DNA from: Dictyostelium discoideum
Lineage: Eukaryota
Assembly: GCA_000004695.1 (NCBI GenBank)
Contig: CM000150.2
Span: forward strand, 128,001-192,000
Reading direction: 5' to 3'
Length of the DNA stretch: 64,000 nt
How positions within the stretch are numbered: position 1 is the stretch's first letter; each line of letters starts with the position of its first letter. Below the pieces are notes generated by a model. The model was not told the origin of the DNA, ran no database searches, and saw only the letters and a list, made by a program, of their open reading frames with translations. This document shows, piece after piece, positions 4,940 to 58,469 of this stretch. Made by a program: the position numbers and the translations under genes.

Positions 4940-7495
4940 TTAAGTGTATGTGTACTTAGGGATGACTTTGATAGTAGATAAGTGCTTGAATACTTGATTT
5001 GCATCCCATATCTCTTTATACTTTGCTGATGAAGGGCGCAACTTGTGAATACCAGTCATAATTCTTGTAATGAATGGATCATTAACAATATCAGTTTGAT
5101 TCCTAAGGAGTAACAACTGATTCAACATAGAGCGATGACCGTTAATTGTTGAGAAGGCTAACGGAGGTTTGTGCTTGAACAGATGTGTAAGATAATCCAT
5201 GAAAACAACTAAGGTAATGTTTGCTGGATTCAAAGAGTTCAAAGTACAGAAATTGCGGAATCTTGTATAACTGGAGCTATATACTTTGAGAGTTGAAGGT
5301 TCCCAAGACTTCATTAACAGCTCAGCTGTTTTTGTATTTGTTGTACGAGCGAATGACATTACATGAGATTGGAAAGTTGAATAATCCCCAGCTTCCAACG
5401 TTGTTGAATCTGGATTGGTATCGACTCTACTGATTGTTTGGTCAATACTTCTTGGAATGTTCCCAGTATTTGAGGAAACATGTGACGATGATGACGAGGA
5501 ACTTGAGCTTGAATCATCGGATACCAAGTTGCTGATCTCCAGATTGGGAAGATCAGTATTATAGAAACCTTCTTCGAACTGGATGAATTCATCTTCTCCA
5601 GGATAGAAGGCAAAAGAATGGGTGGTGGGAAGGCTAGACATTGCTTCCATTGACTCCAATCGAGGTGGAGTGCATTCATTCTGATTGTTGAGTAGTTGTT
5701 CGTTTGATGGTTGAGATGAGATGCGAACAGATCCATCTGTATTTGACCGAATTGGAGTTGGATGCGATTGAACACTTCCTTCTTCAGTTGCCAGTTGTAA
5801 CTCTTGATTACTCTGGTCGATGATTTGTGATTCATCTCTGAAAGACGACTGAGGTAGTCGGCTTTTACATTGAAGAATCCTGGAATATGCTCTCCAATCA
5901 AGTTCACTTTCTTCTTGAGGCATTGTTTCCATAGTTGTTCGAATAGAACTGAGAGATCCTGTATCTGACCACCCTGGCGATTGATGTAAGAGAGAGTGGT
6001 AGTGTTGTCGGTTTGAATCTTCAGCTTGCAGTTGTTCAGTTTCCGACATAGCGCTTGATAGGCCATTAGCAGCGCGAGCATTTCTCGACGATTTGACGAC
6101 ATGTTTGATTGAGTTGTTGACCACTGGAATGACCAAGTTTTGATTACCTTGTTTCCTTTCTTGAGTGTGGCACCTGCACCTGATTCCGAGGCATCGGTTG
6201 TAAGAACATAGTCGTAACTTGGAAACAGACTGATTTCTTTTCCATTCCATTGGTTTAGAACTGTTAACCAATGTGAAATCTCTGACTTGACCTCTTGAGG
6301 AATGGGGAATGATTGATCCCAATCTCCATTGGCTAGAGTCAGACACTGAGAGTGAAACTTGTTTGTTCGACGAGTGTAAAGTCTGAATGGGATGACTGCA
6401 TCTTTCAGTGCGATTAACTTTCCTTTTAAACCAGCAAGCTTTCTTGGGGAGCAACAATCTAGTTTTAAAAAGTTTCTTATTTCTTTGATGACACTTTTCT
6501 TCTTTTCTTTGGGAACAAGAAGCTTCATTGATACCGAATCGATTTGTAATCCGAGAAAAGTAATTGATTGAGTTGGTTCGAGAACACTCTTTTCTAGATT
6601 TAACTTGAAGCCTAGTTTGACAAGTAAGTCCATAGTCTTTTTGAGGTTGGATAAACATTCTTCTTTTGTTGAACCGACGATTAATAGATCGTCCAAGTAA
6701 GCGATGACGGATACGTTGATATCTCTCAACATTCGAAGTACAGGTCTTAGCAGCATTGTAAAGATACGAGGAGCTGTCGATAACCCGAATGGCATTGTTT
6801 TCCAACGGTAGTGCGAACCTTTCCACACGAAGCGGAATAAGTCTCTGTATTGTGGGTCTACTAACACGTGGAGGTAGGCTTTCTTGATATCGAGTTTTAC
6901 CATGTAATAACCTTGTTTGACCATTGACGGTAGATTCTTGATTCCTTCCATCTTGAATGATTGGTTGTTGATGAAGGTGTTTAACCTTTTTAAATCTAGA
7001 ACTGGACGATGTAGATTCGTTCCAGGTTTTGGAACCGTAAACACGTTGGAGTAAAAAACGCGCTTTGAATAACGGTTTGGAAGTACTTGTTCGATAGCAT
7101 CGTCTAATAACAAGTCTTGTACTTCCTTTGTGATGCAATCTGATTTGGGACCCTCTGGAATTGAAATCGGAATTGGGTTTAGCATCGGCTTGAAATTTGG
7201 AAGCAGATGGACTTTTAATCCATTTACGACCTCTTGACAAAAGTTTGGAAGACCCAATTCTTTCCAAACTTGTTTGTGGTTGAACAGACGTCCACCTACT
7301 GGTAAGTTTACTTCTTGTTCTTCTGAAAACGGTTGTTGGTACCGTTGGCAGACTTGGTATTGTTGCTACCTGATGCAACATTACTTGGTGATCCATTGAA
7401 GTTGTTAGATCGGCCATTACTCCCACTACTGGATTTACTATTGCTACTGTTTCCTGTAGTGTTATTACCACTTGAGTTAACTGATTTCTTGACAT
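4940..7495 (-). pseudogene. DIRS-1 ORF2, interrupted (C-terminal ~190 aa of the recombinase separated to 1-117 and beyond window)
   Basis: 851-aa ORF ends at ...VIPKYTYT, exactly the nested-insertion breakpoint. Confidence 0.7.
5359..7257 (-). CDS. DIRS-1 RT/RNase H ORF (copy 2)
   Basis: 632 aa, ~99% identical to 1628..3526 product. Confidence 0.8.
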   Translation of the reverse strand: MGLPNFCQEVVNGLKVHLLPNFKPMLNPIPISIPEGPKSDCITKEVQDLLLDDAIEQVLPNRYSKRVFYSNVFTVPKPGTNLHRPVLDLKRLNTFINNQSFKMEGIKNLPSMVKQGYYMVKLDIKKAYLHVLVDPQYRDLFRFVWKGSHYRWKTMPFGLSTAPRIFTMLLRPVLRMLRDINVSVIAYLDDLLIVGSTKEECLSNLKKTMDLLVKLGFKLNLEKSVLEPTQSITFLGLQIDSVSMKLLVPKEKKKSVIKEIRNFLKLDCCSPRKLAGLKGKLIALKDAVIPFRLYTRRTNKFHSQCLTLANGDWDQSFPIPQEVKSEISHWLTVLNQWNGKEISLFPSYDYVLTTDASESGAGATLKKGNKVIKTWSFQWSTTQSNMSSNRREMLALLMAYQALCRKLNNCKLKIQTDNTTTLSYINRQGGQIQDLSVLFEQLWKQCLKKKVNLIGEHIPGFFNVKADYLSRLSEMNHKSSTRVIKSYNWQLKKEVFNRIQLQFGQIQMDLFASHLNHQTNNYSTIRMNALHLDWSQWKQCLAFPPPILLPSILEKMNSSSSKKVSIILIFPIWRSATWYPMIQAQVPRHHRHMFPQILGTFQEVLTKQSVESIPIQIQQRWKLGIIQLSNLM

Positions 7496-8312
7496 TGGAC
7501 TTGGAATGATAATTCAATTTTAACAATGATTGTTTAGCTTCGTTGTTCTTTCTGATTGACTTGGCTAGCTTTCTTACACGTTCAGTTTCAGTTTCATCAA
7601 ACATCTTTGGTGTATCCTTGATCTTAATTGGTAAGAGTACTTCAGAACCATAGATTTCTTTAGCGATGTTGTTACGACGGACACGACTAAGCGATGCTTG
7701 AGCATTAACGGCTAAGACGATTGCACTCTGAGTTAAATAACTAATAAGTTCTACATCGACATTAGAGCTATCAGATGATAACATACTTGACATGAGAAGC
7801 AAAGGTTTTAAGCTATCGTTGATTCGCTTTTCGACAATCAACAAGTCAGTATCATTGTTCTTGACGTTGGATGATACAGTAATACCTTCAGGTGTACCGA
7901 ATGGAGCGACATTCACTTGGAAGTTAGATGGAAAGTTGAATACTTTATTCAATTCGGATATCTCATCTTTCTTGAGGATACATTCTTCGACAAGTAAACC
8001 TTGATTGTTTACCATATGTTTGTACTGACCAAGTAAAGTATCGGATAATTGATAATCGGTTGGAACATCGACATTGTTACTTGATTCATCTTCACTTTGT
8101 TCATTCTCGGTGTCAGAGTTATCATGAGAAGGTTGGCTACGTGAATTGGTATTAGATGAGAACATAGGTTCTTTCATGAATCTAGTAAAGGCTAAGGAAA
8201 GGTTGTTGATTTGATCCTCCATTGATTTCATTCTTAAATCAAAGGATTCAGCGCTATTAGAGGCAGAGGTATTGCTACTAGAGGCTTCATTATTATTATC
8301 AGTGGTAGACAT
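7308..8312 (-). CDS. DIRS-1 ORF1 (copy 2)
   Basis: 334 aa, near-identical to 570..1577 product. Confidence 0.8.
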   Translation of the reverse strand: MSTTDNNNEASSSNTSASNSAESFDLRMKSMEDQINNLSLAFTRFMKEPMFSSNTNSRSQPSHDNSDTENEQSEDESSNNVDVPTDYQLSDTLLGQYKHMVNNQGLLVEECILKKDEISELNKVFNFPSNFQVNVAPFGTPEGITVSSNVKNNDTDLLIVEKRINDSLKPLLLMSSMLSSDSSNVDVELISYLTQSAIVLAVNAQASLSRVRRNNIAKEIYGSEVLLPIKIKDTPKMFDETETERVRKLAKSIRKNNEAKQSLLKLNYHSKSNVKKSVNSSGNNTTGNSSNSKSSSGSNGRSNNFNGSPSNVASGSNNTKSANGTNNRFQKNKK

Positions 8313-8429
8313 ATTTTATTGTTGATATCTAAAATTATAATATGAGAAAAATAATAATATTAAAAATTTATAAAGAGAAATAATTATTTGTATAAAATTT
8401 GTGTGTGTGTGTATCTTAAATATATATAG

Positions 8430-8752
8430 GAGGAATTCCCAAATAAAAATTGTTTTTAGTTTTTAGTGCTACTATTTATACGTTTTTATTTTCTTAAAAA
8501 TTTCGCAAAACTCAAAAAAATAAGAGTTTTCGACCCTTCACAACTTTGTGCATAGTGTCGGTTCGGAATTTTTCAGTTTTTCGACCTTGCGCAATGATCG
8601 CGTCATTGTGCCGGTTCGAAATTTTTACTTTTCTTTCGAAAATTTTTTATTCTTCGAATGTTCTAGAACATTCTAAAAAATTATCTTAAATATTTGGGAA
8701 ATTCAAATAAATAAATGTTATTCATAATATATATATATATATGATAATATAA
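8430..8752. repeat. DIRS-1 left ITR (inverted orientation) with HSE-like site at ~8653-8676
   Basis: cgaatgttctagaacattctaaaa; terminus ...gataatataaaa at 8752. Confidence 0.75.
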
Positions 8753-8773
8753 AAGACTGATCAATACCCATCA

Positions 8774-9034
8774 CTAATTTACCATTAGGGCAGGGGATCT
8801 CACGGATACTAGATTGCGCAAAACTTCCCGTATTCTCATCAATAAGAAGATATGTGGTGATTGTATCCACAGTGGGGGCTGGGATGGTCCCAATGCCGTG
8901 TTCCAGGCCTGATAAAACTTATCAGAATTAGAACCGCCATCTTGCACAACTATCGCTGGTGTTAATGTAGCAGCCGCAACAAACAACCCTTGATCAAATT
9001 TTAATCTATTTCCTGCCTTCGCACTAATACGCAC
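8774..9034 (-). CDS. Hypothetical ORF, possibly the frameshifted continuation of the upstream tail-fibre-like gene
   Basis: Same strand, 100 bp downstream, GC-normal codon usage. Confidence 0.2.
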   Translation of the reverse strand: MRISAKAGNRLKFDQGLFVAAATLTPAIVVQDGGSNSDKFYQAWNTALGPSQPPLWIQSPHIFLLMRIREVLRNLVSVRSPALMVN

Positions 9035-9135
9035 ATCTCAACTATCGGAAGCAGGACCCGCCATCATATTTAAAATGATAGGTGTGCCGCCATCTTCCAT
9101 GTACGCTATGAGTGTTGCGTTCTGAATTGTAGGAC

Positions 9136-9519
9136 CTAGTGCACCATTACCGTAAGCTTGAATGAACTGGCCCTTAGGGGTAGGAATACCGTTATCGCGC
9201 CTGGAGCTGATAATATTTCGTTGTCCGTAACATCCTGTTTCGTGTAAGCCGTGTGAGTAGCCACTGATACTTTGGGTGCTGTAAAGACGTCTTTCACAAT
9301 GTCATTAATCTCTGCAGCGGTCACAACACCGCCCTGGATAACTTCCTCTATGTCTGGTAATCCTCCGTTACCACCACCACCGCCCGCTAATGCGATTATA
9401 TCGCCTAACGTTGCTTTCCTTAAGGCTAATCGTCCATCTTCATTTAGTTGGGAAATCGCAACAATCTCCTGACCCGTTATAGTTTGAGCTGCTGGTAATG
9501 TAGAAAATTTAACAGCCAT
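9136..9519 (-). CDS. Hypothetical protein with phage tail-fibre N-terminal-like sequence (MAVKFSTLPAAQTITGQEIVAISQ...GGGGGNGGLPD); likely a truncated gene
   Basis: GGAG Shine-Dalgarno 7 nt upstream of the internal ATG (ttatGGAGcgttattATG); resemblance to P2-gpH/lambda-Stf-type N-termini is from memory, not searched. Confidence 0.35.
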   Translation of the reverse strand: MAVKFSTLPAAQTITGQEIVAISQLNEDGRLALRKATLGDIIALAGGGGGNGGLPDIEEVIQGGVVTAAEINDIVKDVFTAPKVSVATHTAYTKQDVTDNEILSAPGAITVFLPLRASSFKLTVMVH

Positions 9520-10281
9520 AATAACGCTCCATAATTCAACCGATTTAAATGCTAAAATATCAATATATTGCAATGGTCAAAGCATGGGGTTTTATAGGAG
9601 CCCTACTAGACTCTCTCGTTTAAACTTTATACACTACTTATTATTATTGATTTAAAAATGAGTGCAGGACTCATTAAGGCTTGCACAGGGAATTGAACCC
9701 CAATCCACGTTATCGTTGGTGGCTCTAGGCCGCTGTGAGCTACATACATTCTGTCAGAAAGGTAACCTACGTCCCTCCAACTTTAACGCACTCTATTGTT
9801 GAGCTATACAAGCATAACATAAATGACCCAGCCTCGCAGTATTTATTACATTCGCAGCGGCGATGCACGCCTAACCACACAGTTTATGAACCCACTAGAT
9901 TATCAGATCCCGACTGGAAGTTTTGTCACGAACTCTATTGTAGGGTAATTAATCCTACGGTCAAGCCGTCTACCAATTAGTTAAGTACCTAGTAAATGTT
10001 CAACGATTAAGACATCATCCTCTGGACTCAGTCCGTATCTGTTCTTTGCGTGTCTGGCTATTACTGGCTTATTTGTTTGCAGTGGGTCTTTGCTATCATC
10101 GCTGAGACTTGGATGATAAAAATACCAACCAAGTCTTGTTCACCGCTCCACGTATAAGGGGAAAATATTGTCTCCTCAAGACAGCCCGAAGGTAGTCGGT
10201 GGCTAACCACAGCCCAACTCACCTTTTGCTCAGGATTTACCCTAAAAGGCTATTAACTTTATAACCTCATCTTTGAGTGCG

Positions 10282-10849
10282 ATTAGCTTTCCTTTTAAAC
10301 CAGCAAGCTTTCTTGGGGAGCAACAATCTAGTTTTAAAAGTTTCTTATTTCCTTGATGACACTTTTCTTCTTTTCTTTGGGAACAAGAAGCTTCATTGAT
10401 TTTGAATCGATTTGTAATCCGAGAAATGTAATTGATTGAGTTGGTTCAAGAACAATCTTTTCTAGATTCAGCTTGAAACCTAGTTTGACAAGTAAGTCCA
10501 TTGTCTTTTTGAGGTTGGATAAACATTCTTCTTTTGTTGAACCGACGATTAATAGATCGTCCAAGTAAGCGATTACGGACACGTTGATATCTCTCAACAT
10601 TCGAAGTACATGTCTTAACAACATTGTAAAGATACGAGGAGCTGTCGATAACCCGAACGGCATTGTTTTCCAACGGTAGTGCGAACCTTTCCACACGAAG
10701 CGGAATAAGTCTCTGTATTGCGGATCTACTAAAACGTGGAGGTAGGCTTTCTTGATATCGAGTTTTACCATGTAATAACCTTGTTTGACCATTGACGGTA
10801 GATTCTTGATTCCTTCCATCTTGAATGATTGGTTGTTGATGTAAGTGTT
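10282..10849 (-). pseudogene. DIRS-1 RT-region fragment (element coords ~1912-2480), target of another nested DIRS insertion
   Basis: 161-aa ORF 10334..10819 is identical to the RT core; abuts a plus-oriented left ITR at 10850. Confidence 0.8.
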
Positions 10850-11762
10850 TATTTATATTATCATATATATATATATTATGAATAACATTTATTTATTTGA
10901 ATTTCCCAAATATTTAAGATAATTTTTTAGAATGTTCTAGAACATTTGAAGAATAAAAAATTTTCAAAAGAAAAGTAAAAATTTCGAACAGGCACAATGA
11001 CGAGATAATTGCGCAAGGTCGAAAAACATAAAAATACCGAACCGACACAATGCACAAATTTGTGAAGGGTCGAAAACACTTATTTTTTTGAGTTTTGCGA
11101 AATTTTTAAGAAAATAAAAACGTATAAATAGTAGCACTAAAAACTAAAACAATTTGATTTATTTTATTTGGGAATTCCTCCTATATATATTTAAGATATA
11201 CACACACACAAATTTTATACAAATAATTATTTCTCTTTATTAATTTTTAATATTATTATTTTTCTCATATTATAATTTTAGATATCAAAAATAAAATATG
11301 TCTACAACTGTTAATAATAATTATACCTCTAGTAGTAGTACCTCTGCCTCTAATAGCGCTGAATCCTTTGATTTAAGAATGAAATCAATGGAGGATCAAA
11401 TCAACAACCTTTCTTTAGACTTTACAAGATTCATGAAAGAACCTATGTTCTCATCTAATACCAATTCACGTAGCCAACCTTCTCATGATGATTCTGACAC
11501 TGAGAATGAACAAAGTGAAGATGAATCAAGTAACAATGTCGATGTTCCAACCGATTATAAATTATCCGATACCTTACTTGGTCAGTACAAACATATGGTA
11601 AACAATCAAGGTTTACTCGTCGAAGAAGAATGTATCCTCAAGAAAGATGAGATATCCGAATTGAATAAAGTATTCAACTTTCCATCCAACTTCCAAGTCA
11701 ACGTCGCTCCATTCGGTACACCTGAAGGTATTACTGTATCATCCAACGTCAAGAACAATGAT
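10850..11762 (+). mobile_element. DIRS-1 5' fragment: left ITR plus first 155 codons of ORF1, then truncated
   Basis: ITR 10850-11180, HSE at ~10930, ORF1 11298..11765 ends in stop where homology is lost. Confidence 0.8.
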
Positions 11763-11765
11763 TAA
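11298..11765 (+). pseudogene. DIRS-1 ORF1, 3'-truncated
   Basis: 155 aa identical in register to ORF1 N-terminus. Confidence 0.75.
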
Positions 11766-12419
11766 TGTAAAAAAATAAAAAAAAATAATAAAAAAAATGA
11801 AACCATAAAACATAAATAAAATGATATGTTTTATTTTTTAATTTAATTTTGTATAAATATTTGTGAATACAATGAGAAATAATATACCGGGTTACACTGA
11901 ATTATATAAATAATAACATAATCTTTCTGAAAAACTTATTAATTTTTTTTTTTTTTTTTTTTTATTTTTTTATTTTTTTTTTTTTTAGTAATTGTTGACT
12001 AAAACCTATAAATATTTTCATTTATGTAACTACTGTATTCTAAACTTAACTATAATTATATATTTGATATGTGTTTATTAATAATTTACCATTATAAATT
12101 GTAAAATAATTTTTAATTTTTTTTTTTTTTACCTTTTTTTTTATCTTTAATTTTTTTTTATCTTTTTTTTTTAACCTTTTTTTTTTATCTTTTTTTAACC
12201 TTTTTTTTATCTTTTTTTTTTTTTTTCTAAAATATTATTGCTACATTTGTTGTTAAAAAAAAATAGGAATTTTATTTTTTTTTTATATTTTTTTTCATCA
12301 CACATTCACAAACATGCTTTATTTTTTAAAAAAAAAATATTTAAATTAAAAAAACATGCTTTATTTTTTTTTACAAAAATAAATTTTTTTTTTTTTATTT
12401 TTTTTTTTAAACCTATAAA

Positions 12420-13121
12420 CACAGCAAAGAAAAATGCACCTTTAAAGCAAATTTAAAGTAAAGTTGATTTAAATTGGATTTAAATTGAATTTAAAGCCGC
12501 GTTTAAAAAATTCATTTTTAAGGTAATTTTTAAGGTAATTTTTAAGATATTTAAAAATGCCTTTAAAATTTGCTTAAAAATTTATTTTAAAGGTAATTTT
12601 AAAGGTGATTTTTAAGGTAATTTTTAAAATGATTTTTAAGATATTTAAAAATACCTTTAAAATTTATTTTAAATTAATTTTAAATAGGATTTAAAGTAGA
12701 TTTAAAGTAGATTTAAAGTGAATTTAAATTTCCTTAATATATAAATTTAAGGTTTTTAATAAAAAAGATCTAATTATAGATAAAAAAAATGGGGATAAAA
12801 TATTCTATCATTTTTAAATTTTCATCAAAGCAATCAAATGGTCGGGGGATCGAATCCCTTTTGGTAATTTTTGAAAAAATTAAAAAAAAAAAATTTAAAA
12901 AATTTATCCGTTAAATAACGGCTTCGAACTCAGGACCTCGCTTTTAAAGCGATTAAAAAGGTAATTTTAAAGGTAATTTTAAAGGTAATTTTAAAGGTGA
13001 TTTTAAAGTAACCTTAAAAATTACCTTTCAAATTACCTTTAAAATTGCTTTAATTCAGGACTTTAAAGCAAATTTAAATTTAATTTAAAGCGAATTTAAA
13101 GGTGGTTTTTTCTTTGCTGTG
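12420..13121. mobile_element. MITE-like non-coding TIR element (termini cacagcRaagaaaaa...ttttcttYgctgtg), DDT/thug-like Dictyostelium DNA-transposon derivative; family assignment uncertain
   Basis: ~28-bp imperfect terminal inverted repeats, subterminal ggtaattttaaagg repeats, internal T-arm-like motifs. Confidence 0.6.
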
Positions 13122-13473
13122 AAATATTTTGCTTTTTTTTTTTTTTTTTTTTTTTTATTATTTTTTTTTACCAACACATAACGACTCTTCCTTACTTATA
13201 ATATATAAGCAAATAACATTAAAAAAATTGTTAAATTATTTACATAACTTTTACGTAAAAACGAACGGATTTTTATTTTTATTTTTATTTTTTTTCAATT
13301 TTTTTTTTTTTTGTTTCGGTTATTATTTTTCAGACTTAAATTATTATTTATAAATTAAATATAAAAAATAATATTGCATCATCTGGAAATGGTAATTATT
13401 TAAATTGATATTATCCAACTTCGCTTATTTTAAATAAAAATGAAACTGCACTAAATCAAAACTGGTAAGGTAA

Positions 13474-14027
13474 GATGATTTTTAAGGTAATTTTTAAGAT
13501 AATTTTTAAGATATTTAAAAAATACCTTTAAAATTTATTTTAAATTAATTTTAAATAGGATTTAAAGTAGATTTAAAGTATATTTAAAGTGAATTTAAAT
13601 TTCCTTTAAGTATAAATTTAAGGTTTTTAATTAAAAAGATCCATTTTTAGATCAAAAAAATGGGGATAAAATATTCTACCATATTTAAATTTTCATCAAA
13701 GCAATCAAATGGTGTAATGGTTGATGAGACTATCCTTTGATAGAGGGTCGGGGGATCGAATCCCTTTTGGTAATTTTTGAGAAATTAAAAAAAAAAATTT
13801 TAAAAAATTTATCCGTTAAATAACGGCTTCGAACCCAGGACCTCGCTTTTAAAGCGATTAAAAAGGTAATTTTAAAGGTAATTTTAAAGGTAATTTTTAA
13901 GGTGATTTTAAAGTAACCTTAAAAATTACCTTTAAAATTACCTTAAAAATTGCTTTAATTCAGGACTTTAAATTCGCTTTAAATTAAATTTAAATTTGCT
14001 TTAAAGGTGGTTTTTTCTTCGCTGTGT
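13474..14027. mobile_element. MITE-like TIR element, 5'-truncated copy
   Basis: Matches internal and right-terminal parts of 12420-13121; ends ...ggtggttttttcttcgctgtg. Confidence 0.55.
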
Positions 14028-14735
14028 TAATGCCGATTTTTTTCATTTTTTGTTTTGTTTCTAATTTTATTTTGAGGATTTGAAAAATCTTGTTTATTTG
14101 GTTTTGAATTGTGAAAGTCAATAATATCTTTTTGATTTCTAAAATTTCCTTCTTTTAATAAATAATCGACACCTCTTGGTTTATCACATGTATGACATGA
14201 GAAATCATTGCAATTATAATGGTTAATCCTACAAGATGATCTAAATTCTGTTATATGCATTGTTAATCCATATGGTATAATTTCATAATCATTTTCATTA
14301 TTATCTTTAATTTTTAATTTATTATTAAATTGCGCTGAAAATAATTTTTTAATTGTTTGATGTATATTGTGAAACCATTCTTTTGGAACAATAAAAAAAA
14401 CAATTTTATTATTTTTAAAAAATGGACCAACATAATTTTCAAAATCTACCAATAATGTATAATCTGATCTACCTTGATGACTCATTCCTTCACTAAATAT
14501 TCTTAATAAAATAAATTTATATAAAATTGAATTTTTTATTTTATTAAACTGTTCTCCAGATTTATAATTTTTATAAATACCTTGCTCATAGTCTTTTGAG
14601 AAATCTAAATATTCTAAAAAATTTTTTTTTTCAATTAATAATTTAACAACTGAATAAATTTCAAAATAAAAAATTGACTCTTCATTTGTAACTCAAAAAG
14701 TGACCATCGATAGGTAAATTTGCTAAAAATATAGA
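14027..14735 (-). pseudogene. Fragment of a divergent paralogue of the 30505..33024 transposase (covers ~aa 255-485), truncated where the MITE terminus at 14027 begins
   Basis: ...SIFYFEI...LLRIFSEGM...GLTMHITEFRSSCRINHYNCNDFSCHTCDKPRG aligns to the full-length protein; stop codon directly abuts cacagcg. Confidence 0.55.
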
Positions 14736-14743
14736 ATCCATAC

Positions 14744-14783
14744 ACAGCGAAGAAAAAACCACCTTAAAAGCAAATTTAATCTA
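14744..14783. repeat. Solo TIR of the MITE-like family
   Basis: cacagcgaagaaaaaaccaccttaaaagcaaattt, no matching partner nearby. Confidence 0.5.
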
Positions 14784-15410: not shown

Positions 15411-15715
15411 GTATTCTTATTAAGTGAACTTTATAATTACCCTTAATAATTACCCTTATTAATTATAATTAATAATTCCACTTAATAGTTATACTTAATA
15501 ATTATACTTAATAATTTTAATTATTAATTATATTTTATTATTATACTTAATAATTATGCTTAATAAATATACTTTTTAATTATACTTAATAAATATACTT
15601 AATAAATATACTTTTTAATTATACTTATTAATTATACTTAATAAATATACTTAATAATTATACTTAATAATTATACTTAATAAATATACTTATTAAGTAT
15701 ACTTAATAATAGTAC
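15411..15715. repeat. AT-rich tandem satellite (unit ~ATACTTAATAAATATAC / TTATACTTAATAA)
   Basis: ~18 imperfect tandem units visible by eye. Confidence 0.6.
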
Positions 15716-15719
15716 TATT

Positions 15720-47916: not shown

Positions 47917-49445
47917 AAGACTGATCAATACCCATCACTAATTTACCATTAGGGCAGGGGATCTCACGGATACTAGATTGCGCAAAACTTCCCGTATTCT
48001 CATCAATAAGAAGATATGTGGTGATTGTATCCACAGTGGGGGCTGGGATGGTCCCAATGCCGTGTTCCAGGCCTGATAAAACTTATCAGAATTAGAACCG
48101 CCATCTTGCACAACTATCGCTGGTGTTAATGTAGCAGCCGCAACAAACAACCCTTGATCAAATTTTAATCTATTTCCTGCCTTCGCACTAATACGCACAT
48201 CTCAACTATCGGAAGCAGGACCCGCCATCATATTTAAAATGATAGGTGTGCCGCCATCTTCCATGTACGCTATGAGTGTTGCGTTCTGAATTGTAGGACC
48301 TAGTGCACCATTACCGTAAGCTTGAATGAACTGGCCCTTAGGGGTAGGAATACCGTTATCGCGCCTGGAGCTGATAATATTTCGTTGTCCGTAACATCCT
48401 GTTTCGTGTAAGCCGTGTGAGTAGCCACTGATACTTTGGGTGCTGTAAAGACGTCTTTCACAATGTCATTAATCTCTGCAGCGGTCACAACACCGCCCTG
48501 GATAACTTCCTCTATGTCTGGTAATCCTCCGTTACCACCACCACCGCCCGCTAATGCGATTATATCGCCTAACGTTGCTTTCCTTAAGGCTAATCGTCCA
48601 TCTTCATTTAGTTGGGAAATCGCAACAATCTCCTGACCCGTTATAGTTTGAGCTGCTGGTAATGTAGAAAATTTAACAGCCATAATAACGCTCCATAATT
48701 CAACCGATTTAAATGCTAAAATATCAATATATTGCAATGGTCAAAGCATGGGGTTTTATAGGAGCCCTACTAGACTCTCTCGTTTAAACTTTATACACTA
48801 CTTATTATTATTGATTTAAAAATGAGTGCAGGACTCATTAAGGCTTGCACAGGGAATTGAACCCCAATCCACGTTATCGTTGGTGGCTCTAGGCCGCTGT
48901 GAGCTACATACATTCTGTCAGAAAGGTAACCTACGTCCCTCCAACTTTAACGCACTCTATTGTTGAGCTATACAAGCATAACATAAATGACCCAGCCTCG
49001 CAGTATTTATTACATTCGCAGCGGCGATGCACGCCTAACCACACAGTTTATGAACCCACTAGATTATCAGATCCCGACTGGAAGTTTTGTCACGAACTCT
49101 ATTGTAGGGTAATTAATCCTACGGTCAAGCCGTCTACCAATTAGTTAAGTACCTAGTAAATGTTCAACGATTAAGACATCATCCTCTGGACTCAGTCCGT
49201 ATCTGTTCTTTGCGTGTCTGGCTATTACTGGCTTATTTGTTTGCAGTGGGTCTTTGCTATCATCGCTGAGACTTGGATGATAAAAATACCAACCAAGTCT
49301 TGTTCACCGCTCCACGTATAAGGGGAAAATATTGTCTCCTCAAGACAGCCCGAAGGTAGTCGGTGGCTAACCACAGCCCAACTCACCTTTTGCTCAGGAT
49401 TTACCCTAAAAGGCTATTAACTTTATAACCTCATCTTTGAGTGCG
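47917..49445. other. GC-normal island A' (duplicate of 8753-10281) including tail-fibre-like CDS 48300..48683 (-)
   Basis: Identical translation products. Confidence 0.6.
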
Positions 49446-50926
49446 ATTAGCTTTCCTTTTAAACCAGCAAGCTTTCTTGGGGAGCAACAATCTAGTTTTA
49501 AAAGTTTCTTATTTCCTTGATGACACTTTTCTTCTTTTCTTTGGGAACAAGAAGCTTCATTGATTTTGAATCGATTTGTAATCCGAGAAATGTAATTGAT
49601 TGAGTTGGTTCAAGAACAATCTTTTCTAGATTCAGCTTGAAACCTAGTTTGACAAGTAAGTCCATTGTCTTTTTGAGGTTGGATAAACATTCTTCTTTTG
49701 TTGAACCGACGATTAATAGATCGTCCAAGTAAGCGATTACGGACACGTTGATATCTCTCAACATTCGAAGTACATGTCTTAACAACATTGTAAAGATACG
49801 AGGAGCTGTCGATAACCCGAACGGCATTGTTTTCCAACGGTAGTGCGAACCTTTCCACACGAAGCGGAATAAGTCTCTGTATTGCGGATCTACTAAAACG
49901 TGGAGGTAGGCTTTCTTGATATCGAGTTTTACCATGTAATAACCTTGTTTGACCATTGACGGTAGATTCTTGATTCCTTCCATCTTGAATGATTGGTTGT
50001 TGATGTAAGTGTTTATTTATATTATCATATATATATATATTATGAATAACATTTATTTATTTGAATTTCCCAAATATTTAAGATAATTTTTTAGAATGTT
50101 CTAGAACATTTGAAGAATAAAAAATTTTCAAAAGAAAAGTAAAAATTTCGAACAGGCACAATGACGAGATAATTGCGCAAGGTCGAAAAACATAAAAATA
50201 CCGAACCGACACAATGCACAAATTTGTGAAGGGTCGAAAACACTTATTTTTTTGAGTTTTGCGAAATTTTTAAGAAAATAAAAACGTATAAATAGTAGCA
50301 CTAAAAACTAAAACAATTTGATTTATTTTATTTGGGAATTCCTCCTATATATATTTAAGATATACACACACACAAATTTTATACAAATAATTATTTCTCT
50401 TTATTAATTTTTAATATTATTATTTTTCTCATATTATAATTTTAGATATCAAAAATAAAATATGTCTACAACTGTTAATAATAATTATACCTCTAGTAGT
50501 AGTACCTCTGCCTCTAATAGCGCTGAATCCTTTGATTTAAGAATGAAATCAATGGAGGATCAAATCAACAACCTTTCTTTAGACTTTACAAGATTCATGA
50601 AAGAACCTATGTTCTCATCTAATACCAATTCACGTAGCCAACCTTCTCATGATGATTCTGACACTGAGAATGAACAAAGTGAAGATGAATCAAGTAACAA
50701 TGTCGATGTTCCAACCGATTATAAATTATCCGATACCTTACTTGGTCAGTACAAACATATGGTAAACAATCAAGGTTTACTCGTCGAAGAAGAATGTATC
50801 CTCAAGAAAGATGAGATATCCGAATTGAATAAAGTATTCAACTTTCCATCCAACTTCCAAGTCAACGTCGCTCCATTCGGTACACCTGAAGGTATTACTG
50901 TATCATCCAACGTCAAGAACAATGAT
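49446..50926. mobile_element. Duplicate of DIRS RT fragment (-) plus ITR/ORF1 5' fragment (+)
   Basis: Offset +39164 from 10282-11762. Confidence 0.75.
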
Positions 50927-51583
50927 TAATGTAAAAAAATAAAAAAAAATAATAAAAAAAATGAAACCATAAAACATAAATAAAATGATATGTTTTATTT
51001 TTTAATTTAATTTTGTATAAATATTTGTGAATACAATGAGAAATAATATACCGGGTTACACTGAATTATATAAATAATAACATAATCTTTCTGAAAAACT
51101 TATTAATTTTTTTTTTTTTTTTTTTTTATTTTTTTATTTTTTTTTTTTTTAGTAATTGTTGACTAAAACCTATAAATATTTTCATTTATGTAACTACTGT
51201 ATTCTAAACTTAACTATAATTATATATTTGATATGTGTTTATTAATAATTTACCATTATAAATTGTAAAATAATTTTTAATTTTTTTTTTTTTTACCTTT
51301 TTTTTTATCTTTAATTTTTTTTTATCTTTTTTTTTTAACCTTTTTTTTTTATCTTTTTTTAACCTTTTTTTTATCTTTTTTTTTTTTTTTCTAAAATATT
51401 ATTGCTACATTTGTTGTTAAAAAAAAATAGGAATTTTATTTTTTTTTTATATTTTTTTTCATCACACATTCACAAACATGCTTTATTTTTTAAAAAAAAA
51501 ATATTTAAATTAAAAAAACATGCTTTATTTTTTTTTACAAAAATAAATTTTTTTTTTTTTATTTTTTTTTTTAAACCTATAAA

Positions 51584-53899
51584 CACAGCAAAGAAAAATG
51601 CACCTTTAAAGCAAATTTAAAGTAAAGTTGATTTAAATTGGATTTAAATTGAATTTAAAGCCGCGTTTAAAAAATTCATTTTTAAGGTAATTTTTAAGGT
51701 AATTTTTAAGATATTTAAAAATGCCTTTAAAATTTGCTTAAAAATTTATTTTAAAGGTAATTTTAAAGGTGATTTTTAAGGTAATTTTTAAAATGATTTT
51801 TAAGATATTTAAAAATACCTTTAAAATTTATTTTAAATTAATTTTAAATAGGATTTAAAGTAGATTTAAAGTAGATTTAAAGTGAATTTAAATTTCCTTA
51901 ATATATAAATTTAAGGTTTTTAATAAAAAAGATCTAATTATAGATAAAAAAAATGGGGATAAAATATTCTATCATTTTTAAATTTTCATCAAAGCAATCA
52001 AATGGTCGGGGGATCGAATCCCTTTTGGTAATTTTTGAAAAAATTAAAAAAAAAAAATTTAAAAAATTTATCCGTTAAATAACGGCTTCGAACTCAGGAC
52101 CTCGCTTTTAAAGCGATTAAAAAGGTAATTTTAAAGGTAATTTTAAAGGTAATTTTAAAGGTGATTTTAAAGTAACCTTAAAAATTACCTTTCAAATTAC
52201 CTTTAAAATTGCTTTAATTCAGGACTTTAAAGCAAATTTAAATTTAATTTAAAGCGAATTTAAAGGTGGTTTTTTCTTTGCTGTGAAATATTTTGCTTTT
52301 TTTTTTTTTTTTTTTTTTTTATTATTTTTTTTTACCAACACATAACGACTCTTCCTTACTTATAATATATAAGCAAATAACATTAAAAAAATTGTTAAAT
52401 TATTTACATAACTTTTACGTAAAAACGAACGGATTTTTATTTTTATTTTTATTTTTTTTCAATTTTTTTTTTTTTTGTTTCGGTTATTATTTTTCAGACT
52501 TAAATTATTATTTATAAATTAAATATAAAAAATAATATTGCATCATCTGGAAATGGTAATTATTTAAATTGATATTATCCAACTTCGCTTATTTTAAATA
52601 AAAATGAAACTGCACTAAATCAAAACTGGTAAGGTAAGATGATTTTTAAGGTAATTTTTAAGATAATTTTTAAGATATTTAAAAAATACCTTTAAAATTT
52701 ATTTTAAATTAATTTTAAATAGGATTTAAAGTAGATTTAAAGTATATTTAAAGTGAATTTAAATTTCCTTTAAGTATAAATTTAAGGTTTTTAATTAAAA
52801 AGATCCATTTTTAGATCAAAAAAATGGGGATAAAATATTCTACCATATTTAAATTTTCATCAAAGCAATCAAATGGTGTAATGGTTGATGAGACTATCCT
52901 TTGATAGAGGGTCGGGGGATCGAATCCCTTTTGGTAATTTTTGAGAAATTAAAAAAAAAAATTTTAAAAAATTTATCCGTTAAATAACGGCTTCGAACCC
53001 AGGACCTCGCTTTTAAAGCGATTAAAAAGGTAATTTTAAAGGTAATTTTAAAGGTAATTTTTAAGGTGATTTTAAAGTAACCTTAAAAATTACCTTTAAA
53101 ATTACCTTAAAAATTGCTTTAATTCAGGACTTTAAATTCGCTTTAAATTAAATTTAAATTTGCTTTAAAGGTGGTTTTTTCTTCGCTGTGTTAATGCCGA
53201 TTTTTTTCATTTTTTGTTTTGTTTCTAATTTTATTTTGAGGATTTGAAAAATCTTGTTTATTTGGTTTTGAATTGTGAAAGTCAATAATATCTTTTTGAT
53301 TTCTAAAATTTCCTTCTTTTAATAAATAATCGACACCTCTTGGTTTATCACATGTATGACATGAGAAATCATTGCAATTATAATGGTTAATCCTACAAGA
53401 TGATCTAAATTCTGTTATATGCATTGTTAATCCATATGGTATAATTTCATAATCATTTTCATTATTATCTTTAATTTTTAATTTATTATTAAATTGCGCT
53501 GAAAATAATTTTTTAATTGTTTGATGTATATTGTGAAACCATTCTTTTGGAACAATAAAAAAAACAATTTTATTATTTTTAAAAAATGGACCAACATAAT
53601 TTTCAAAATCTACCAATAATGTATAATCTGATCTACCTTGATGACTCATTCCTTCACTAAATATTCTTAATAAAATAAATTTATATAAAATTGAATTTTT
53701 TATTTTATTAAACTGTTCTCCAGATTTATAATTTTTATAAATACCTTGCTCATAGTCTTTTGAGAAATCTAAATATTCTAAAAAATTTTTTTTTTCAATT
53801 AATAATTTAACAACTGAATAAATTTCAAAATAAAAAATTGACTCTTCATTTGTAACTCAAAAAGTGACCATCGATAGGTAAATTTGCTAAAAATATAGA
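51584..53899. mobile_element. Duplicates of MITE-like copies (51584-52285; 52638-53191) and transposase fragment (53191-53899, minus)
   Basis: Offset +39164. Confidence 0.55.
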
Positions 53900-54883
53900 A
53901 TCCATACACAGCGAAGAAAAAACCACCTTAAAAGCAAATTTAATCTAAAAAAAAAACAAAAAAAGTATTATTTTAGATTTCTTCAACTTCATCAATAATA
54001 TCAATGCTTTCAAAACCAATCACCAGTTCTTTTAAAATAAATTGATACTACAATTAAATAATAGCTGGTAAGTTAATATAATTTTTTTTTAAAAAAAAAA
54101 AAAATTAAAAAAAAAAAAAAAATAAATAATAATAATAAAATAAAATAGATAGACTAATTTGAAAAATAATAATTATATTTTAGGTTACCTTTCTTATTAT
54201 ACCAACAACCACTTCTTTTCAATCAAATTGATACTTCACTTATATAATAACTGGTAAGTCAATATAATTTTTTTTTTTTAAAAAAAAAATAATAATATAA
54301 AATAAAGAGATTAATATAATTTAAACAATTATATTTTAGGTTGTTTCTTCTTTTATTAGAACCTGTAAAGTAAATGCTTTTGGTACAAATTATAATGGAA
54401 ATAAAGTTCTGCTTTTCAAATTAGTCAATTATAAATGTTGTATTACCATTAAATAAAAAAAATTTCTGATTTCAAATACTTTTACTTTTTAATTAATTCT
54501 TTTTTTTTTTTTTTTTTTTTTAAATTTATTTTAAATTATTATTATAAAATGTTATTTTTAATTTTTATTTTTAAGTATTCTTATTAAGTGAACTTTATAA
54601 TTACCCTTAATAATTACCCTTATTAATTATAATTAATAATTCCACTTAATAGTTATACTTAATAATTATACTTAATAATTTTAATTATTAATTATATTTT
54701 ATTATTATACTTAATAATTATGCTTAATAAATATACTTTTTAATTATACTTAATAAATATACTTAATAAATATACTTTTTAATTATACTTATTAATTATA
54801 CTTAATAAATATACTTAATAATTATACTTAATAATTATACTTAATAAATATACTTATTAAGTATACTTAATAATAGTACTATT

Positions 54884-56153
54884 TACGTTCCTACTTTAAA
54901 GATGCTTTTAAGTATTTTTTTTCGCCCCTGTGGAGATTAACACCCTCATTTAGGGGATGTCTTGACCAGAACACAGGTTATCCCCTTATTTTTTCTTTTA
55001 ATTCAATGGAGGAATGTCATGCCATGTAAACCTTTTGATTTTGGTAACAGGACAAAACGCACTGCAGCGGTCGATAAAGCCAAGCGAGTTGCTAATCCAA
55101 TTCGTCGTACTCAGTTACTGAAGAAGATTCGTTAATGACTGATCGGAAAGTCAGCATCGCTAGAATGGTAGATTGTCGTTGAGATGCAGGGCGTAAAGCC
55201 CAGCTATTGGCAAAGATGTAAGCGGCTTAAGAGCCCCTAATTAGTATCCGCGGTCACGGCCGCACATCCTAGCCTATGGGCTCACACCAATGCGTAATAT
55301 GGTAGCAAAAATCATGTCAGATGAAGACATCCCAGATCATGATACCCGTACATGGTATTGTCTCCAGTATCCAATAACCTCAATCTGCCATCAAACCAAA
55401 TTATAATATTTAAAAAAAAAAATTTGAATCTCAAAAATCATTTTCTAGATCTGAAAAAACCCACTTAAATTATTATTAAATTACTATTTTTTTTAATAAT
55501 TTAGTAAATAGATATTTTAAGTCATAAATTAAGCGATAAAATCTATTTTTTTGGTTAACCAGCATAGTCTAGGTGTTTATCTATTTAATATGTTTTTTGT
55601 GGATAATAAAGCATATTTCAATCACTAATGATATTTATTAAATTTATTAAATTTGTTTATTTTTTTTTTCCGTGATGGAAAATGGTAAGACCATTAGTTC
55701 GTTCTGCATTGCCCATTACATCACCACTTCTTACATGTCAGCGTCTGGTGAAGTTACGCTGGGTGATGCAGCCGATAAAGAGACACAGTTCGCTATTAAC
55801 TCGACTGGATCGATTAATATGTAAGCGCCACGTTTTGTTCTGAAGGGTATTCGGGATGAGAGAACACCTGTTTTTGAATGCTCATGAATTATCCAGCATA
55901 GTATGTGGAATTCTATAGACCCTATTACCAGAAATACGACCACGGAAGATCTTGGTTCGCAACGCGTTTGCTGAAGTGGTTCACACACAACTATCCAACA
56001 GCGGTGATTGATGTGGTTAAGTCCGTGGCCCTGGTTCTTGTTAAACATCGCGATTTGATTGGTAACCCATCATTCATTGACACAGAGTGGTTTTTGGATG
56101 GTGAGTGTTTGCGTCATCTTAATAACGCACTGGTCATGGAAAACGAACCGGTT
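54884..56153. other. GC-normal island B' (duplicate of 15720-16989)
   Basis: Offset +39164. Confidence 0.55.
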
Positions 56154-58469
56154 TATTTATATTATCATATATATATATATATATTATGAATAACATTTAT
56201 TTATTTGAATTTCCCAAATATTTAAGATAATTTTTTAGAATGTTCTAGAACATTCGAAGAATAAAAAAAATTTTCCAAAGAAAAGTAAAAATTTCGACCC
56301 GGCACAATGATGCGATAATTGTGCAAGGTCGAAAAACTGAAAAATTCGGAACCGACACTATGTACAAAGTTGTGAAGGGTCGAAAACTCTTATTTTTTTG
56401 AGTTTTGCGAAATTTTTAAGAAAATAAAAACGTATAAATAGTGGCACTAAAAACTAAAACAATTTGATTTATTTTATTTGGGAATTCCTCCTATATATAT
56501 TTAAGATACACACACACACAAATTTTATACAAATATTTATTTCTCTTTATTAATTTTTTATATTATTATTTTTCTCATATTATAATTTTAGATATCAACA
56601 ATAAAATATGTCTACCACTGTTAATAATAATGATGCCTCTAGTAGTAGTGCCTCTGCCTCTAATAGCGCTGAATCCTTTGATTTAAGAATAAAATCAATG
56701 GAGGATCAAATCAACAACCTTTCTTTAGCCTTTACAAGATTCATGAAAGAACCTATTTTCTCATCTAATTCCAATTCACGTAGCCAACCTTCTCATGATA
56801 ACTCTGACACCGAGAATGAACAAAGTGAAGATGAATCAAGTAACAATGTCGATGTTCCAACCGATTATCAATTATCCGATACCTTACTTGGTCAGTACAA
56901 ACATATGGTAAACAATCAAGGTTTACTCGTCGAAGGAATCAAGAATCTACCATCAATGGTCAAACAAGGTTATTACATGGTAAAACTCGATATCAAGAAA
57001 GCCTACCTCCACGTTTTAGTAGATCCGCAATACAGAGACTTATTCCGCTTCGTGTGGAAAGGTTCGCACTACCGTTGGAAAACAATGCCGTTGGGGTTAT
57101 CGACAGCTCATGGTATCTTTACAATGTTGTTAAGACCTGTACTTGGAATGTTGAGAGATATCAACGTATCCGTCATCGCTTACTTGGACGATCTATTAAT
57201 CGTCGGTTCAACAAAAGAAGAATGTTTATCCAACCTCAAAAAGACGATGGACTTACTTATCAAACTAGGTTTCAAGTTAAATCTAGAAAAGAGTGTTCTC
57301 GAACCAACTCAATCAATTACGTTTCTCGGATTACAAATCGATTCAAAATCAATGAAGCTTCTTGTTCCCAAAGAAAAGAAGAAAAGTGTCATCAAGGAAA
57401 TAAGAAACTTTTTAAAACTAGATTGTTGCTCCCCAAGAAAGCTTGCTGGTTTAAAAGGAAAGCTAATTGCACTGAAAGATGCAGTTATCCCATTCAGACT
57501 TTACACTCGTAGAACAAACAAGTTTCACTCTCAGTGTCTGACTCTAGCCAATGGAGATTGGGATCAATCATTCCCCATTCCTCAAGAGGTCAAGTCAGAG
57601 ATTTCACATTGGTTAACAGTTCTAAACCAATGGAATGGAAAAGAAATCAGTCTGTTTCCAAGTTACGACTATGTTCTTACAACCGATGCCTCGGAATCAG
57701 GTGCAGGTGCCACTCTCAAGAAAGGAAACAAGGTAATCAAAACTTGGTCATTCCAGTGGTCAACAACTCAATCAAACATGTCGTCAAATCGTCGAGAAAT
57801 GCTCGCGCTGCTAATGGCCTATCAAGCGCTATGTCAGAAACTGAACAACTGCAAGCTGAAGATTCAAACCGACAACACTACCACTCTCTCTTACATCAAT
57901 CGCCAGGGTGGTCAGATACAGGATCTCTCAGTTCTGTTCGAACAACTTTGGAAACAATGCCTCAAGAAGAAAGTGAACTTGATTGGAGAGCATATTCCAG
58001 GATTCTTCAATGTAAAAGCCGACCACCTCAGTCGTCTTTCAGAGATGAATCACAAATCATCGTCCAGAGTAATCAAGAGTTACAACTGGCAACTGAAGAA
58101 GGAAGTGTTCAATCGCATCCAACTTCAATTCGGTCAAATACAGATGGATCTGTTCGCATCTCACTTCAACCATCAAACGAACAACTACTCAACAATCAGA
58201 ATGAATGCACTCCACCTCGATTGGAGTCAATGGAAGCAATGTCTGGCCTTTCCACCACCCATTCTTTTGCCTTCTATCCTGGAGAAGATGAACTCATCCA
58301 GTTCGAAGAAGGTTTCTATAATACTGATCTTCCCAATCTGGAGATCAGCAACTTGGTATCCGATGATTCAAGCTCAAGTTCCTCGTCATCATCGTCACAT
58401 GTTTCCTCAAGTACTGGGAACATTCCAAGAAGTATTGACCAAACAATCAGTAGAGTCGATACCAATCCA
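56154..58469 (+). mobile_element. DIRS-1 copy 3' (same 1041-bp deletion), truncated by N-gap; ORF1-RT fusion 56608..58469
   Basis: Same junction ctcgtcgaaggaatcaag; differs from copy 3 at several sites including a C-to-G cluster 57090-57150. Confidence 0.85.

Follow-up and report, generated by a model that had tools for sequence, protein, structure and literature searches.

An 11.9-kb block occurs twice in the centromeric DIRS-1 and Skipper cluster of Dictyostelium discoideum AX4 chromosome 1, and its second copy (B) is most probably a redundant, separately built contig of lower quality that represents the locus of the first copy (A), an assembly artefact and not a biological duplication. The window, the whole stretch of 64,000 nucleotides that we analysed, is this cluster. 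Judged from the sequence, A and B appear to be one and the same sequence, with noise in B close to its ends, since the two share their transposon junctions, the columns specific to A, and an identical 9.6-kb core.

Table 1. Features of the window, with positions, strands, and remarks.
Feature	Position	Strand	Remark
Full DIRS-1, nested	121-4943	+	Inside minus-strand DIRS-1 copy
DIRS-1 copy, unit 1-3822	4943-8753	-	Outer 1.32 kb is the left end of the block
Copy A	7430-19305		From self-comparison
Left difference zone	7880-8289		450-857 bp from left end of B
Core, 0 differences between A and B	8290-17928		9,639 bp, 100% identical, 28% GC
GC-rich (43.5%) non-transposon segment	8754-10267	-	Frameshifted tail-fibre-like ORF and tRNA-like pseudogene
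Two adjoining DIRS-1 fragments	10268-11762		Unit 2366-1782 (-), then unit 1-914 (+); junctions identical in A and B
AT-rich segment, 22.6% GC	11763-16991		Repeat family also at 24616-30373, plus low-copy sequence
DIRS-1 copy, complete termini	16992-20776	+	Internal deletion of unit 778-1816, junction 17768-17771
Right difference zone	17929-18649		656-1376 bp from right end of B
Tandem Skipper copies 1 and 2, unit 6,606 bp	34505-46493	-	ORFs on minus strand
100-N gap	46494-46593		After Skipper copy 2, cut at unit position 5382 (gag ORF)
Copy B, entire contig between N-runs	46594-58469		99.77% identical to A
100-N gap	58470-58569		Before Skipper copy 3, starting at unit position 2069 (pol ORF)
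Skipper copy 3	58570-63267	-	3.3-kb overlap with copy 2

Extent of the repeated block

In a self-BLAST of the window, positions 7435-19305 (A) and 46599-58469 (B) aligned in one HSP of 11,874 columns with 99.773% identity, 21 mismatches, and 4 gap openings, and a match of this length cannot be due to chance. The left edge of B next to the N-run (46594-46598) had two further mismatches to A. Besides the two 100-N runs, the window contains one N at 63308; by convention, 100 N stand for a gap whose size is not known. The homology reaches the N-runs on both sides, and B therefore makes up the complete inter-gap contig of 11,876 bp. Copy A sits in an unbroken 46.5-kb contig (1-46493), which is colinear through both end points of B without a break. 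Both edges of A lie in the middle of DIRS-1 elements that run on colinearly: the left one reaches 4943, and the right one, inside which the block ends at 19305, reaches 20776.

In the self-comparison of the window, all sequence of B was also present in A, and B had no junction to Skipper or to another new flank; both ends of B meet the N-runs in mid-DIRS-1. B lies entirely within the sequence of another contig and adds nothing of its own, as expected for a redundant contig. A real and very recent duplication, in which a DIRS-1-bounded segment of at least 11.9 kb was copied ~39 kb away into the Skipper array, is unlikely, and the lack of a breakpoint, novel junction, or unique base in B speaks against it. 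A route for such an event, for example ectopic recombination between DIRS-1 copies or a switch of template from one copy to another, is an equally unlikely proposition. The contig was nevertheless placed here by someone, perhaps from clone links, which is a point in favour of a duplication.

The first-pass annotation had reported that the block recurs between two 100-N runs, and the self-BLAST bore this out at 99.77% identity. It had further described an exact periodicity of 39164 bp in which every ORF recurs. We found two copies only, with no other feature of the window at this offset. The offset is 39164 at both ends of the block, because four indels (-2, +1, -1, +2) sum to zero, but it is 39162-39163 between 7977 and 8289. 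The ORFs recur intact only in part: in B, DIRS ORF1 (7308-8312, 334 aa) is disrupted and an 810-aa ORF on the right side (17890-20322) is split. The annotation was correct that the copies are not identical and that ORF1 carries frameshifts in B, but the right-hand differences, which it had placed at 57090-57150, reach over 57093-57813.

Position and type of the differences

The differences between the copies are confined to their ends. The terminal DIRS-1 segments account for 24% of the block, and all 25 difference events fall in these two (P ~3e-16). In the core, ~20 differences would be expected at the mean rate of the block and none was seen (P ~1.5e-9); at the divergence between Skipper copies (0.5%), the probability of zero differences is ~1e-21. 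The core includes 23 homopolymer runs of at least 10 nt and a 13-bp array of 21.8 copies (15428-15710). All six transposon junctions are common to A and B (6/6), and the columns that set A apart from all other DIRS-1 copies in the window (40 on the left and 16 on the right) are all kept in B. The first-pass annotation had suggested either a separately assembled paralogous contig that was placed in the array or a genuine segmental duplication. A separate contig put in a gap agrees with our results, but the junctions, the A-specific columns, and the identical core do not agree with a paralogue.

In the left zone, every change is private to B, and A agrees there with the other DIRS copies. The changes private to B include a tight cluster at 7977-8003 (47141-47166 in B), and the four indels of this zone break DIRS ORF1 in B, while ORF1 of A is intact. 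In the right zone, five changes are private to B, three of them C>G at 57093, 57112, and 57145 of B; at five sites (18411-18649) B has the base of other DIRS copies, and a further site is mixed. The ratio of transitions to transversions is 4:11 among the B-private changes, whereas natural differences between DIRS copies show 103:55 (Fisher p = 0.005). In kind, the B-private changes resemble errors; error-like differences that lie near the contig ends and are absent from the rest are another mark of a redundant contig. For the five right-hand sites shared with other DIRS copies, gene conversion or errors in A could be alternatives to misplaced reads.

The identical core and the shared junctions would suit a recent duplication equally well, and duplications are frequent in Dictyostelium laboratory strains, some of them flanked by DIRS-1 (PMC2643946). 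A genuine duplication would have to be extremely recent, and it would still leave the end-restricted, error-like differences to poor sequence quality. Poor coverage of the second copy, leading to sequencing errors at its ends, is an improbable addition of this kind. However, shotgun assemblers of that era collapse 9.6-kb repeats that are 100% identical and do not build them twice, and the error-like differences are confined to the contig ends. A segmental duplication would be marked by a breakpoint junction to a new flank, which B lacks, and by divergence that is either spread along the copy or absent, whereas that of B is restricted to its ends.

An older paralogous duplication, whose core was homogenised by gene conversion with divergence left at the edges, is extremely unlikely. 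It would account for the confinement of the differences to the edges and for the tract of at most 350 bp in B (18323-18671) with bases typical of other DIRS copies. However, conversion would have to be perfect over 9.6 kb, including the homopolymer runs and the microsatellite-like array of 22 copies, while the edges keep frameshifts and transversion-rich changes without a counterpart in other DIRS copies, and the outermost 450-650 bp are identical again.

It is also very unlikely that the true locus is the position of B between the Skipper copies and that the contig of A is a chimeric mis-join, although assembly of the region is difficult and the order within it admittedly not certain (PMC2665215). 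Single HSPs with a uniform identity of ~97.5% span 4943-8753 and 17768-20776 and stay within the same two DIRS-1 copies, and A is the version of higher quality, with an intact ORF1 and consensus-like bases. 

Five Dictyostelium loci of the long-read assemblies GCA_054883475.1 and GCA_054859385.1, picked as homologues of an 839-aa transposon ORF and of a DIRS fusion ORF, gave no colinear match to the window, only transposon paralogues with 88-99% identity.

Transposons and phage-like DNA

The minus-strand DIRS-1 copy at the left end of the block resumes at positions 1-120 of the window, beyond the full DIRS-1 nested inside it. ORFs of the nested element matched Pfam PF00589, PF00078, PF17917, and PF05869. 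The element has the tyrosine recombinase, reverse transcriptase, RNase H, and Dam-like methyltransferase that characterize DIRS-1, together with inverted terminal repeats (121-433 vs 4605-4916, 99% identical).

The 6,606-bp unit is a Ty3/gypsy-type LTR retrotransposon: it encodes a reverse transcriptase, an RNase H, and an integrase with zinc-binding and core domains, and a gag ORF lies upstream. We take it to be Skipper and use this name here. ORF 34941-39134 matched PF00078, PF17917, PF17921, and PF00665 (rve), the last with 31.0 bits, just below the curated cut-off of 32.6 bits; the 387-aa ORF upstream of Skipper pol had no Pfam match. Consistent with the earlier annotation, the N-runs interrupt Skipper, the left one in the 387-aa upstream ORF (gag) and the right one in the ORF for reverse transcriptase, RNase H, and integrase (pol). 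Skipper copies 2 and 3 are distinct, since they differ at 18 sites in their 3.3-kb overlap. For this overlap and these differences, we rejected the possibility that a single Skipper, split by B, accounts for both stubs at the gaps. The broken ends of copies 2 and 3 would suit a simple Skipper-gap-Skipper join.

Apart from the transposons, the window holds GC-rich DNA at 8754-10267, inside the block, and at 20776-24615, and both represent degraded pieces of the genome of a phiKZ-like jumbo phage. In the first segment, the frameshifted tail-fibre-like ORF (9139-9519) corresponds to the spliced AX4 gene model DDB_G0267332, whose protein (XP_647697.1) exactly matches three reading-frame pieces of 8990-9760. 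An exhaustive HMMER search found this ORF to be homologous to a gene on a jumbo-phage contig; in the phage collection, the segment had no match by DNA search or tblastn, and homologues were found with HMMER only. The tRNA-like pseudogene (9678-9813), with a 71-nt insert, was detected in a permissive Rfam search only. Rfam at gathering thresholds gave nothing in the whole window, and ARAGORN identified no tRNA in it.

To the second segment, proteins 245, 246, and 247 of Erwinia phage Ea35-70 mapped in order (tblastn), and PHROG 3295 and 3015 matched with E-values down to 9e-45. The segment thus has colinear consecutive phage genes, with split subunits of a multisubunit RNA polymerase followed by a helicase. 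Gene order and orientation are those of the non-virion RNA polymerase/helicase block of phiKZ-like jumbo phages such as Ea35-70 (genes 245-247), with 35-68% amino-acid identity over the three consecutive genes. Unlike the phage block, the segment lies, as assembled, in a eukaryotic centromere, has at least seven frame changes and a 130-aa deletion, is truncated by transposons at both ends, and has a GC content of 43% compared with 49%. Complete DIRS-1 termini adjoin it, and a 98-bp DIRS scrap lies inside; together with the frame changes, these features of the AX4 record point towards a segment that would belong to the Dictyostelium genome itself and not to a contaminant or a chimera. We also asked whether 15763-16991 could be upstream sequence of phage gene 245 that the DIRS-1 insertion had separated from the rest of the gene. 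The idea was dropped, as comparisons of 15763-16991 with phage proteins, PHROGs, and the phage collection gave no similarity.

The phage-derived DNA is a more biologically interesting lead than the repeat and deserves its own follow-up. It would be one of the rare traces of DNA transfer from a phage to a eukaryote, here an amoeba that feeds on bacteria, kept in transposon-rich centromeric DNA.

Proposed assembly history and comparison with known systems

From these sequence facts we infer how a redundant contig may have arisen. A contig would have been seeded on the low-copy core, with its phage-like segment, unique AT-rich DNA, and diagnostic transposon junctions. Its extension into the flanking high-copy DIRS-1 would have been limited to ~1.3-1.5 kb, roughly the reach of short-insert mate pairs, and in its thinly covered outer zones wrong base calls and, over a short tract, reads derived from other DIRS-1 copies would have entered the consensus. 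B is free of differences in its outermost 450-650 bp, with the errors lying further inward, and redundancy needs a particular read layout to explain these clean ends. The same locus would also have been built into the long, manually extended contig that contains A. The short version, its redundancy missed, may then have been inserted, with no overlap in sequence, where two Skipper copies flank a gap that had not been closed, turning this single gap into two 100-N runs. Redundant contigs are usually ascribed to heterozygosity (haplotigs). Dictyostelium is haploid, so the likely cause here would be that the locus was entered twice, once as an automated contig and once as a manually built one.

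The published account of the centromeres is in line with redundancy. The centromere gaps were described as still open, with no read-pair support, and contigs were ordered by the match of adjoining contig ends to transposon consensus sequences (Glockner & Heidel 2009, PMC2665215). The Skipper-gap-DIRS arrangement does not satisfy this ordering rule. No identical integration/truncation patterns were observed across different centromere regions in the same study, and this, like the gaps lacking read-pair support, stands against a recent duplication.

If B is redundant, the reference chromosome 1 overstates the centromere by 11.9 kb, misplaced inside the Skipper array, and the apparent adjacency of Skipper and DIRS is spurious. 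Reads and small RNAs from the core would map ambiguously, the counts of DIRS-1 and other centromeric repeats would be inflated, and centromere growth by segmental duplication would be wrongly inferred from the record. In practical terms, the finding is of value as a specific and checkable correction to a reference that is in wide use. If the duplication were genuine, it would be the first documented repeated integration/truncation pattern in a Dictyostelium centromere, and the duplicated segment would include a relic of jumbo-phage DNA. Clusters could then expand when composite segments are duplicated through unequal or ectopic recombination between DIRS-1 copies, and not only by new retrotransposition.

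The segmental duplications of laboratory strains reported by Bloomfield et al. 2008 (PMC2643946) and that of AX3/AX4 chromosome 2 resemble A and B in being recent and near-identical, with repeats such as DIRS-1 near some breakpoints. However, these were detected by copy number, are at least 15 kb, and lie on gene-bearing chromosome arms, while the extent of the copy here is set by contig ends, with no breakpoint. False duplications in draft and scaffolded assemblies share several features with B, namely a contained contig, gaps of unknown size, ends in high-copy repeats, and differences restricted to low-coverage ends. The clusters of Glockner & Heidel 2009 (PMC2665215) likewise have nested DIRS-1, Skipper, and AT-rich DNA-transposon-like repeats (DIRS-1/Skipper/DDT), a tRNA pseudogene, and a few unresolved gaps, including on chromosome 1. 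Unlike their description, the deposited sequence holds one repeated integration/truncation pattern, which we ascribe to redundancy.

Extent of the repeated block and differences between its copies

Comparison of the window with itself gave one long high-scoring pair between block A (7435–19305) and its second copy, B (46599–58469), with 99.773% identity over 11,874 columns, 21 mismatches and 4 gap openings. This pair and the positions of the N-runs agreed with the first-pass annotation of a block present twice, with the second copy between 100-N gaps, and the repeat is a real property of the sequence record. The term periodicity used there was a misnomer, since the offset of 39164 was unique to this pair within the window; it was equal at both ends only because four indels (-2, +1, -1, +2) cancelled. 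The homology began at the first base past the left N-run, where two of the five opening bases mismatched, and ended at the final base preceding the right one. As it filled the whole stretch between the gaps, B is exactly the 11,876-bp contig placed there. The edges of A fell in mid-DIRS-1, at unit positions 1330 and 3354, and both DIRS-1 copies ran on colinearly outside, so the limits of the repeat were fixed by the ends of contig B and not by the structure of A.

Features of the window, with the parts of phage Ea35-70 proteins covered (tblastn)
Feature	Position	Strand	Remarks
Host DIRS-1	1-120 and 4943-8753	-	split by nested copy
Full-length DIRS-1	121-4943	+	nested at unit position 3822 of host DIRS-1
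Block A	7430-19305
First GC-rich segment	8754-10267	-	non-transposon
Two DIRS fragments	10268-11762
AT-rich DNA	11763-16991
DIRS-1	16992-20776		complete ends, internally deleted
Second GC-rich segment	20776-24615		non-transposon
Ea35-70 gene 245, RNA polymerase beta subunit	in 20776-24615		aa 94-703 covered
Ea35-70 gene 246, RNA polymerase beta subunit	in 20776-24615		aa 7-648 covered, aa 426-555 missing (130-aa deletion)
Ea35-70 gene 247, DNA helicase	in 20776-24615		aa 1-182 covered
AT-rich repeats	24616-34504		include 839-aa ORF
Skipper copy 1	34505-41110		6,606-bp unit
Skipper copy 2	41111-46493		ends at left gap
Left N-run	46494-46593		100 N
Contig B	46594-58469
Right N-run	58470-58569		100 N
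Skipper copy 3	58570-63267		starts after right gap

The A/B differences were confined to 7880–8289 and 17929–18649, at distances of 450–857 bp and 656–1376 bp from the ends of contig B. Between these zones, a core of 9,639 bp was identical throughout, including 23 homopolymer runs of at least 10 nt and an array with 21.8 copies of a 13-bp unit. Under uniform placement, the probability of all 25 events falling within the DIRS segments at either end, together 24% of the block, was ~3e-16, and that of a core empty of differences was ~1.5e-9. All left-zone differences were private to B, with A matching the other DIRS copies, and included a cluster at 7977–8003 (GAGGATACA to GAGTACA; AGTAAACCTTGATTG to AGTGAAAACCTATTG). 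The DIRS ORF1 was intact in A and broken by four indels in B. The right zone contained five B-private changes, three of them C>G inside 52 bp, and five sites (18411–18649) where B carried the base of other DIRS copies, in a tract of at most 350 bp flanked by variants common to A and B. Transitions and transversions stood at 4:11 among B-private substitutions, compared to 103:55 in the natural variation between DIRS copies (Fisher p = 0.005). The differences are unlike the product of mutation, and are what is expected from noisy base calling and the occasional misplaced repeat read at thinly covered contig ends.

Other DIRS-1 copies in the window diverged by 2.3–6%, and the Skipper copies by 0.4–0.6%. 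A and B together were set apart from every other DIRS copy compared at 40 alignment columns on the left and 16 on the right, and all six transposon junctions were common to both, suggesting that B is the same copy as A and not a paralogue. The separately assembled paralogous contig proposed earlier was thus most likely a separate contig, but the shared junctions and diagnostic columns spoke against its being paralogous. Old paralogues that had been homogenised would fit poorly, and we give this reading the least credence of all. Recent nanopore assemblies exist for D. discoideum strains (PMC12745789), with proteins among our database hits, and five loci from two of them gave only paralogous transposon matches to the window (88–99% identity, not colinear).

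The Skipper array and the placement of contig B

Skipper copies 2 and 3 overlapped at unit coordinates 2069–5382 and had 18 differing sites there, six private to copy 2 (alignment columns 2159–3505) and twelve to copy 3 (columns 4199–5240). The two copies are therefore distinct, and a single Skipper interrupted by B was rejected. The three tandem units formed a mosaic of variants. Beside the gap, ~1.9–2.1 kb of each of copies 2 and 3 was identical to copy 1 (unit positions 3506–5385 and 2071–4198, respectively), a pattern that may have arisen by recombination among the tandem units or because contig ends were extended at the consensus level. A short tandem repeat with units of ~43–86 bp was found near one unit end (40641–40814 and 62639–62898) and was 86 bp longer in copy 3 than in copy 1. 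A lone N was located at 63308, ~40 bp into a 250-bp Skipper fragment (63268–63517) that follows copy 3.

The D. discoideum centromeres were rebuilt from shotgun reads, leaving a few gaps without read-pair support; contigs were ordered by one transposon consensus matching both adjoining ends, and the actual order may differ from the published one (Glockner & Heidel, PMC2665215). This ordering rule is satisfied by Skipper-gap-Skipper and violated by Skipper-gap-DIRS...DIRS-gap-Skipper. Identical integration or truncation patterns were not seen across different centromere regions (PMC2665215), a statement contradicted by a repeat of 11.9 kb whose six junctions are identical, unless B lies outside that reconstruction.

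We consider it likely that B is a redundant contig of locus A. Such a contig would have been seeded on the low-copy core, and would have grown into DIRS-1 by 1.32 kb at one end and 1.54 kb at the other, roughly as far as short-insert mate pairs can reach. Later it would have been placed in an unsupported gap and flanked on either side by 100 N, the convention for a gap of unknown size. A very recent genuine duplication is the chief alternative. Duplications occur commonly in laboratory stocks, and DIRS-1 can take part in them (PMC2643946). This alternative appears unlikely, having no junction or breakpoint to show and demanding that the assembler produced two versions of a 9.6-kb repeat with 100% identity, while the differences would still need sequencing error as their cause. 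A mis-joined contig A is also a poor fit and very improbable. Biologically, the repeat is most likely a redundancy of the assembly, in a region where uncertainty had been recognised before.

Transposable elements of the window

The window belongs to the centromeric repeat cluster of AX4 chromosome 1. The DIRS-1 ORFs had tyrosine recombinase, reverse transcriptase, RNase H and Dam-like methyltransferase domains, while those of the Ty3/gypsy-type element, named Skipper in the first-pass annotation, had reverse transcriptase, RNase H and integrase. DIRS-1 prefers inserting into DIRS-1, and the nested full-length copy is a clean case. All relatives of the 839-aa ORF (30505–33024) were hypothetical proteins from Dictyostelium species, and no Pfam domain was found in it. 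An inverted repeat of 1.35 kb (25486–26819 and 30496–31849, 95% identity) represented oppositely oriented copies of the element carrying this ORF, which is probably a DDT/Tdd-type DNA transposon. Directly left of a complete DIRS-1 terminus, the low-copy, GC-rich (31–45%) stretch 15763–16991 had a detectable homologue in none of Pfam, PHROGs and the phage collection.

Phage-like segments

The putative jumbo-phage relics merit separate attention. The AX4 annotation lists the first GC-rich segment, duplicated in B at 47918–49431, as DDB_G0267332, an orphan spliced gene whose three exon pieces were each identical to a window reading frame. Its product (XP_647697.1) was the sole database relative of the conceptual protein at 8774–9760 (-). 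The N-terminal 115 residues of the frameshifted protein were 56% identical to P0147, encoded on the 118-kb Logan contig SRR13790903_41. Thymidylate synthase, a gyrase-like protein, a Peptidase_S74 protein and a member of the Peptidase_S80 family are further products of this contig, whose gene content appears jumbo-phage-like. More distant relatives matched PHROG tail-fibre and minor-tail families, and the DDB_G0267332 region is a frameshifted tail-fibre-like ORF. It adjoins a tRNA-like sequence (9678–9813, -; Rfam RF00005, 31.6 bits) in which 71 nt are inserted at the expected place of the anticodon loop, and where ARAGORN called no tRNA. This sequence probably represents either a tRNA pseudogene of the kind noted in the centromeres by Glockner & Heidel (PMC2665215) or a relic of a phage tRNA.

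The second GC-rich segment resembles a decayed piece of a phage genome within the chromosome-1 centromere, for which our literature search turned up no published report of phage-derived DNA. It contained at least 7 frame changes and was transposon-truncated on both sides, by a complete DIRS-1 terminus and an AT-rich repeat. A 98-bp DIRS-1 scrap (23986–24083; unit positions 3565–3662, 93% identity) lay between the phage-like genes 246 and 247; comparable scraps occurred in centromeric loci fetched from other Dictyostelium assemblies. The GC content of the segments was 43%, compared to 47–49% in phage loci. Judged from sequence, decay and transposon junctions argue for a putative real, old integration of phage-derived DNA over contamination.

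The second segment was colinear with three consecutive genes of Ea35-70, a phiKZ-like Erwinia jumbo phage, with order kept on one strand and 35–68% amino-acid identity (tblastn). Its ORFs matched PHROG 3295 and 3015 (E down to 9e-45), and ORF 21832–22452, aligned across 98% of its length, shared 60% identity with the corresponding gene of Ea35-70's phage group.
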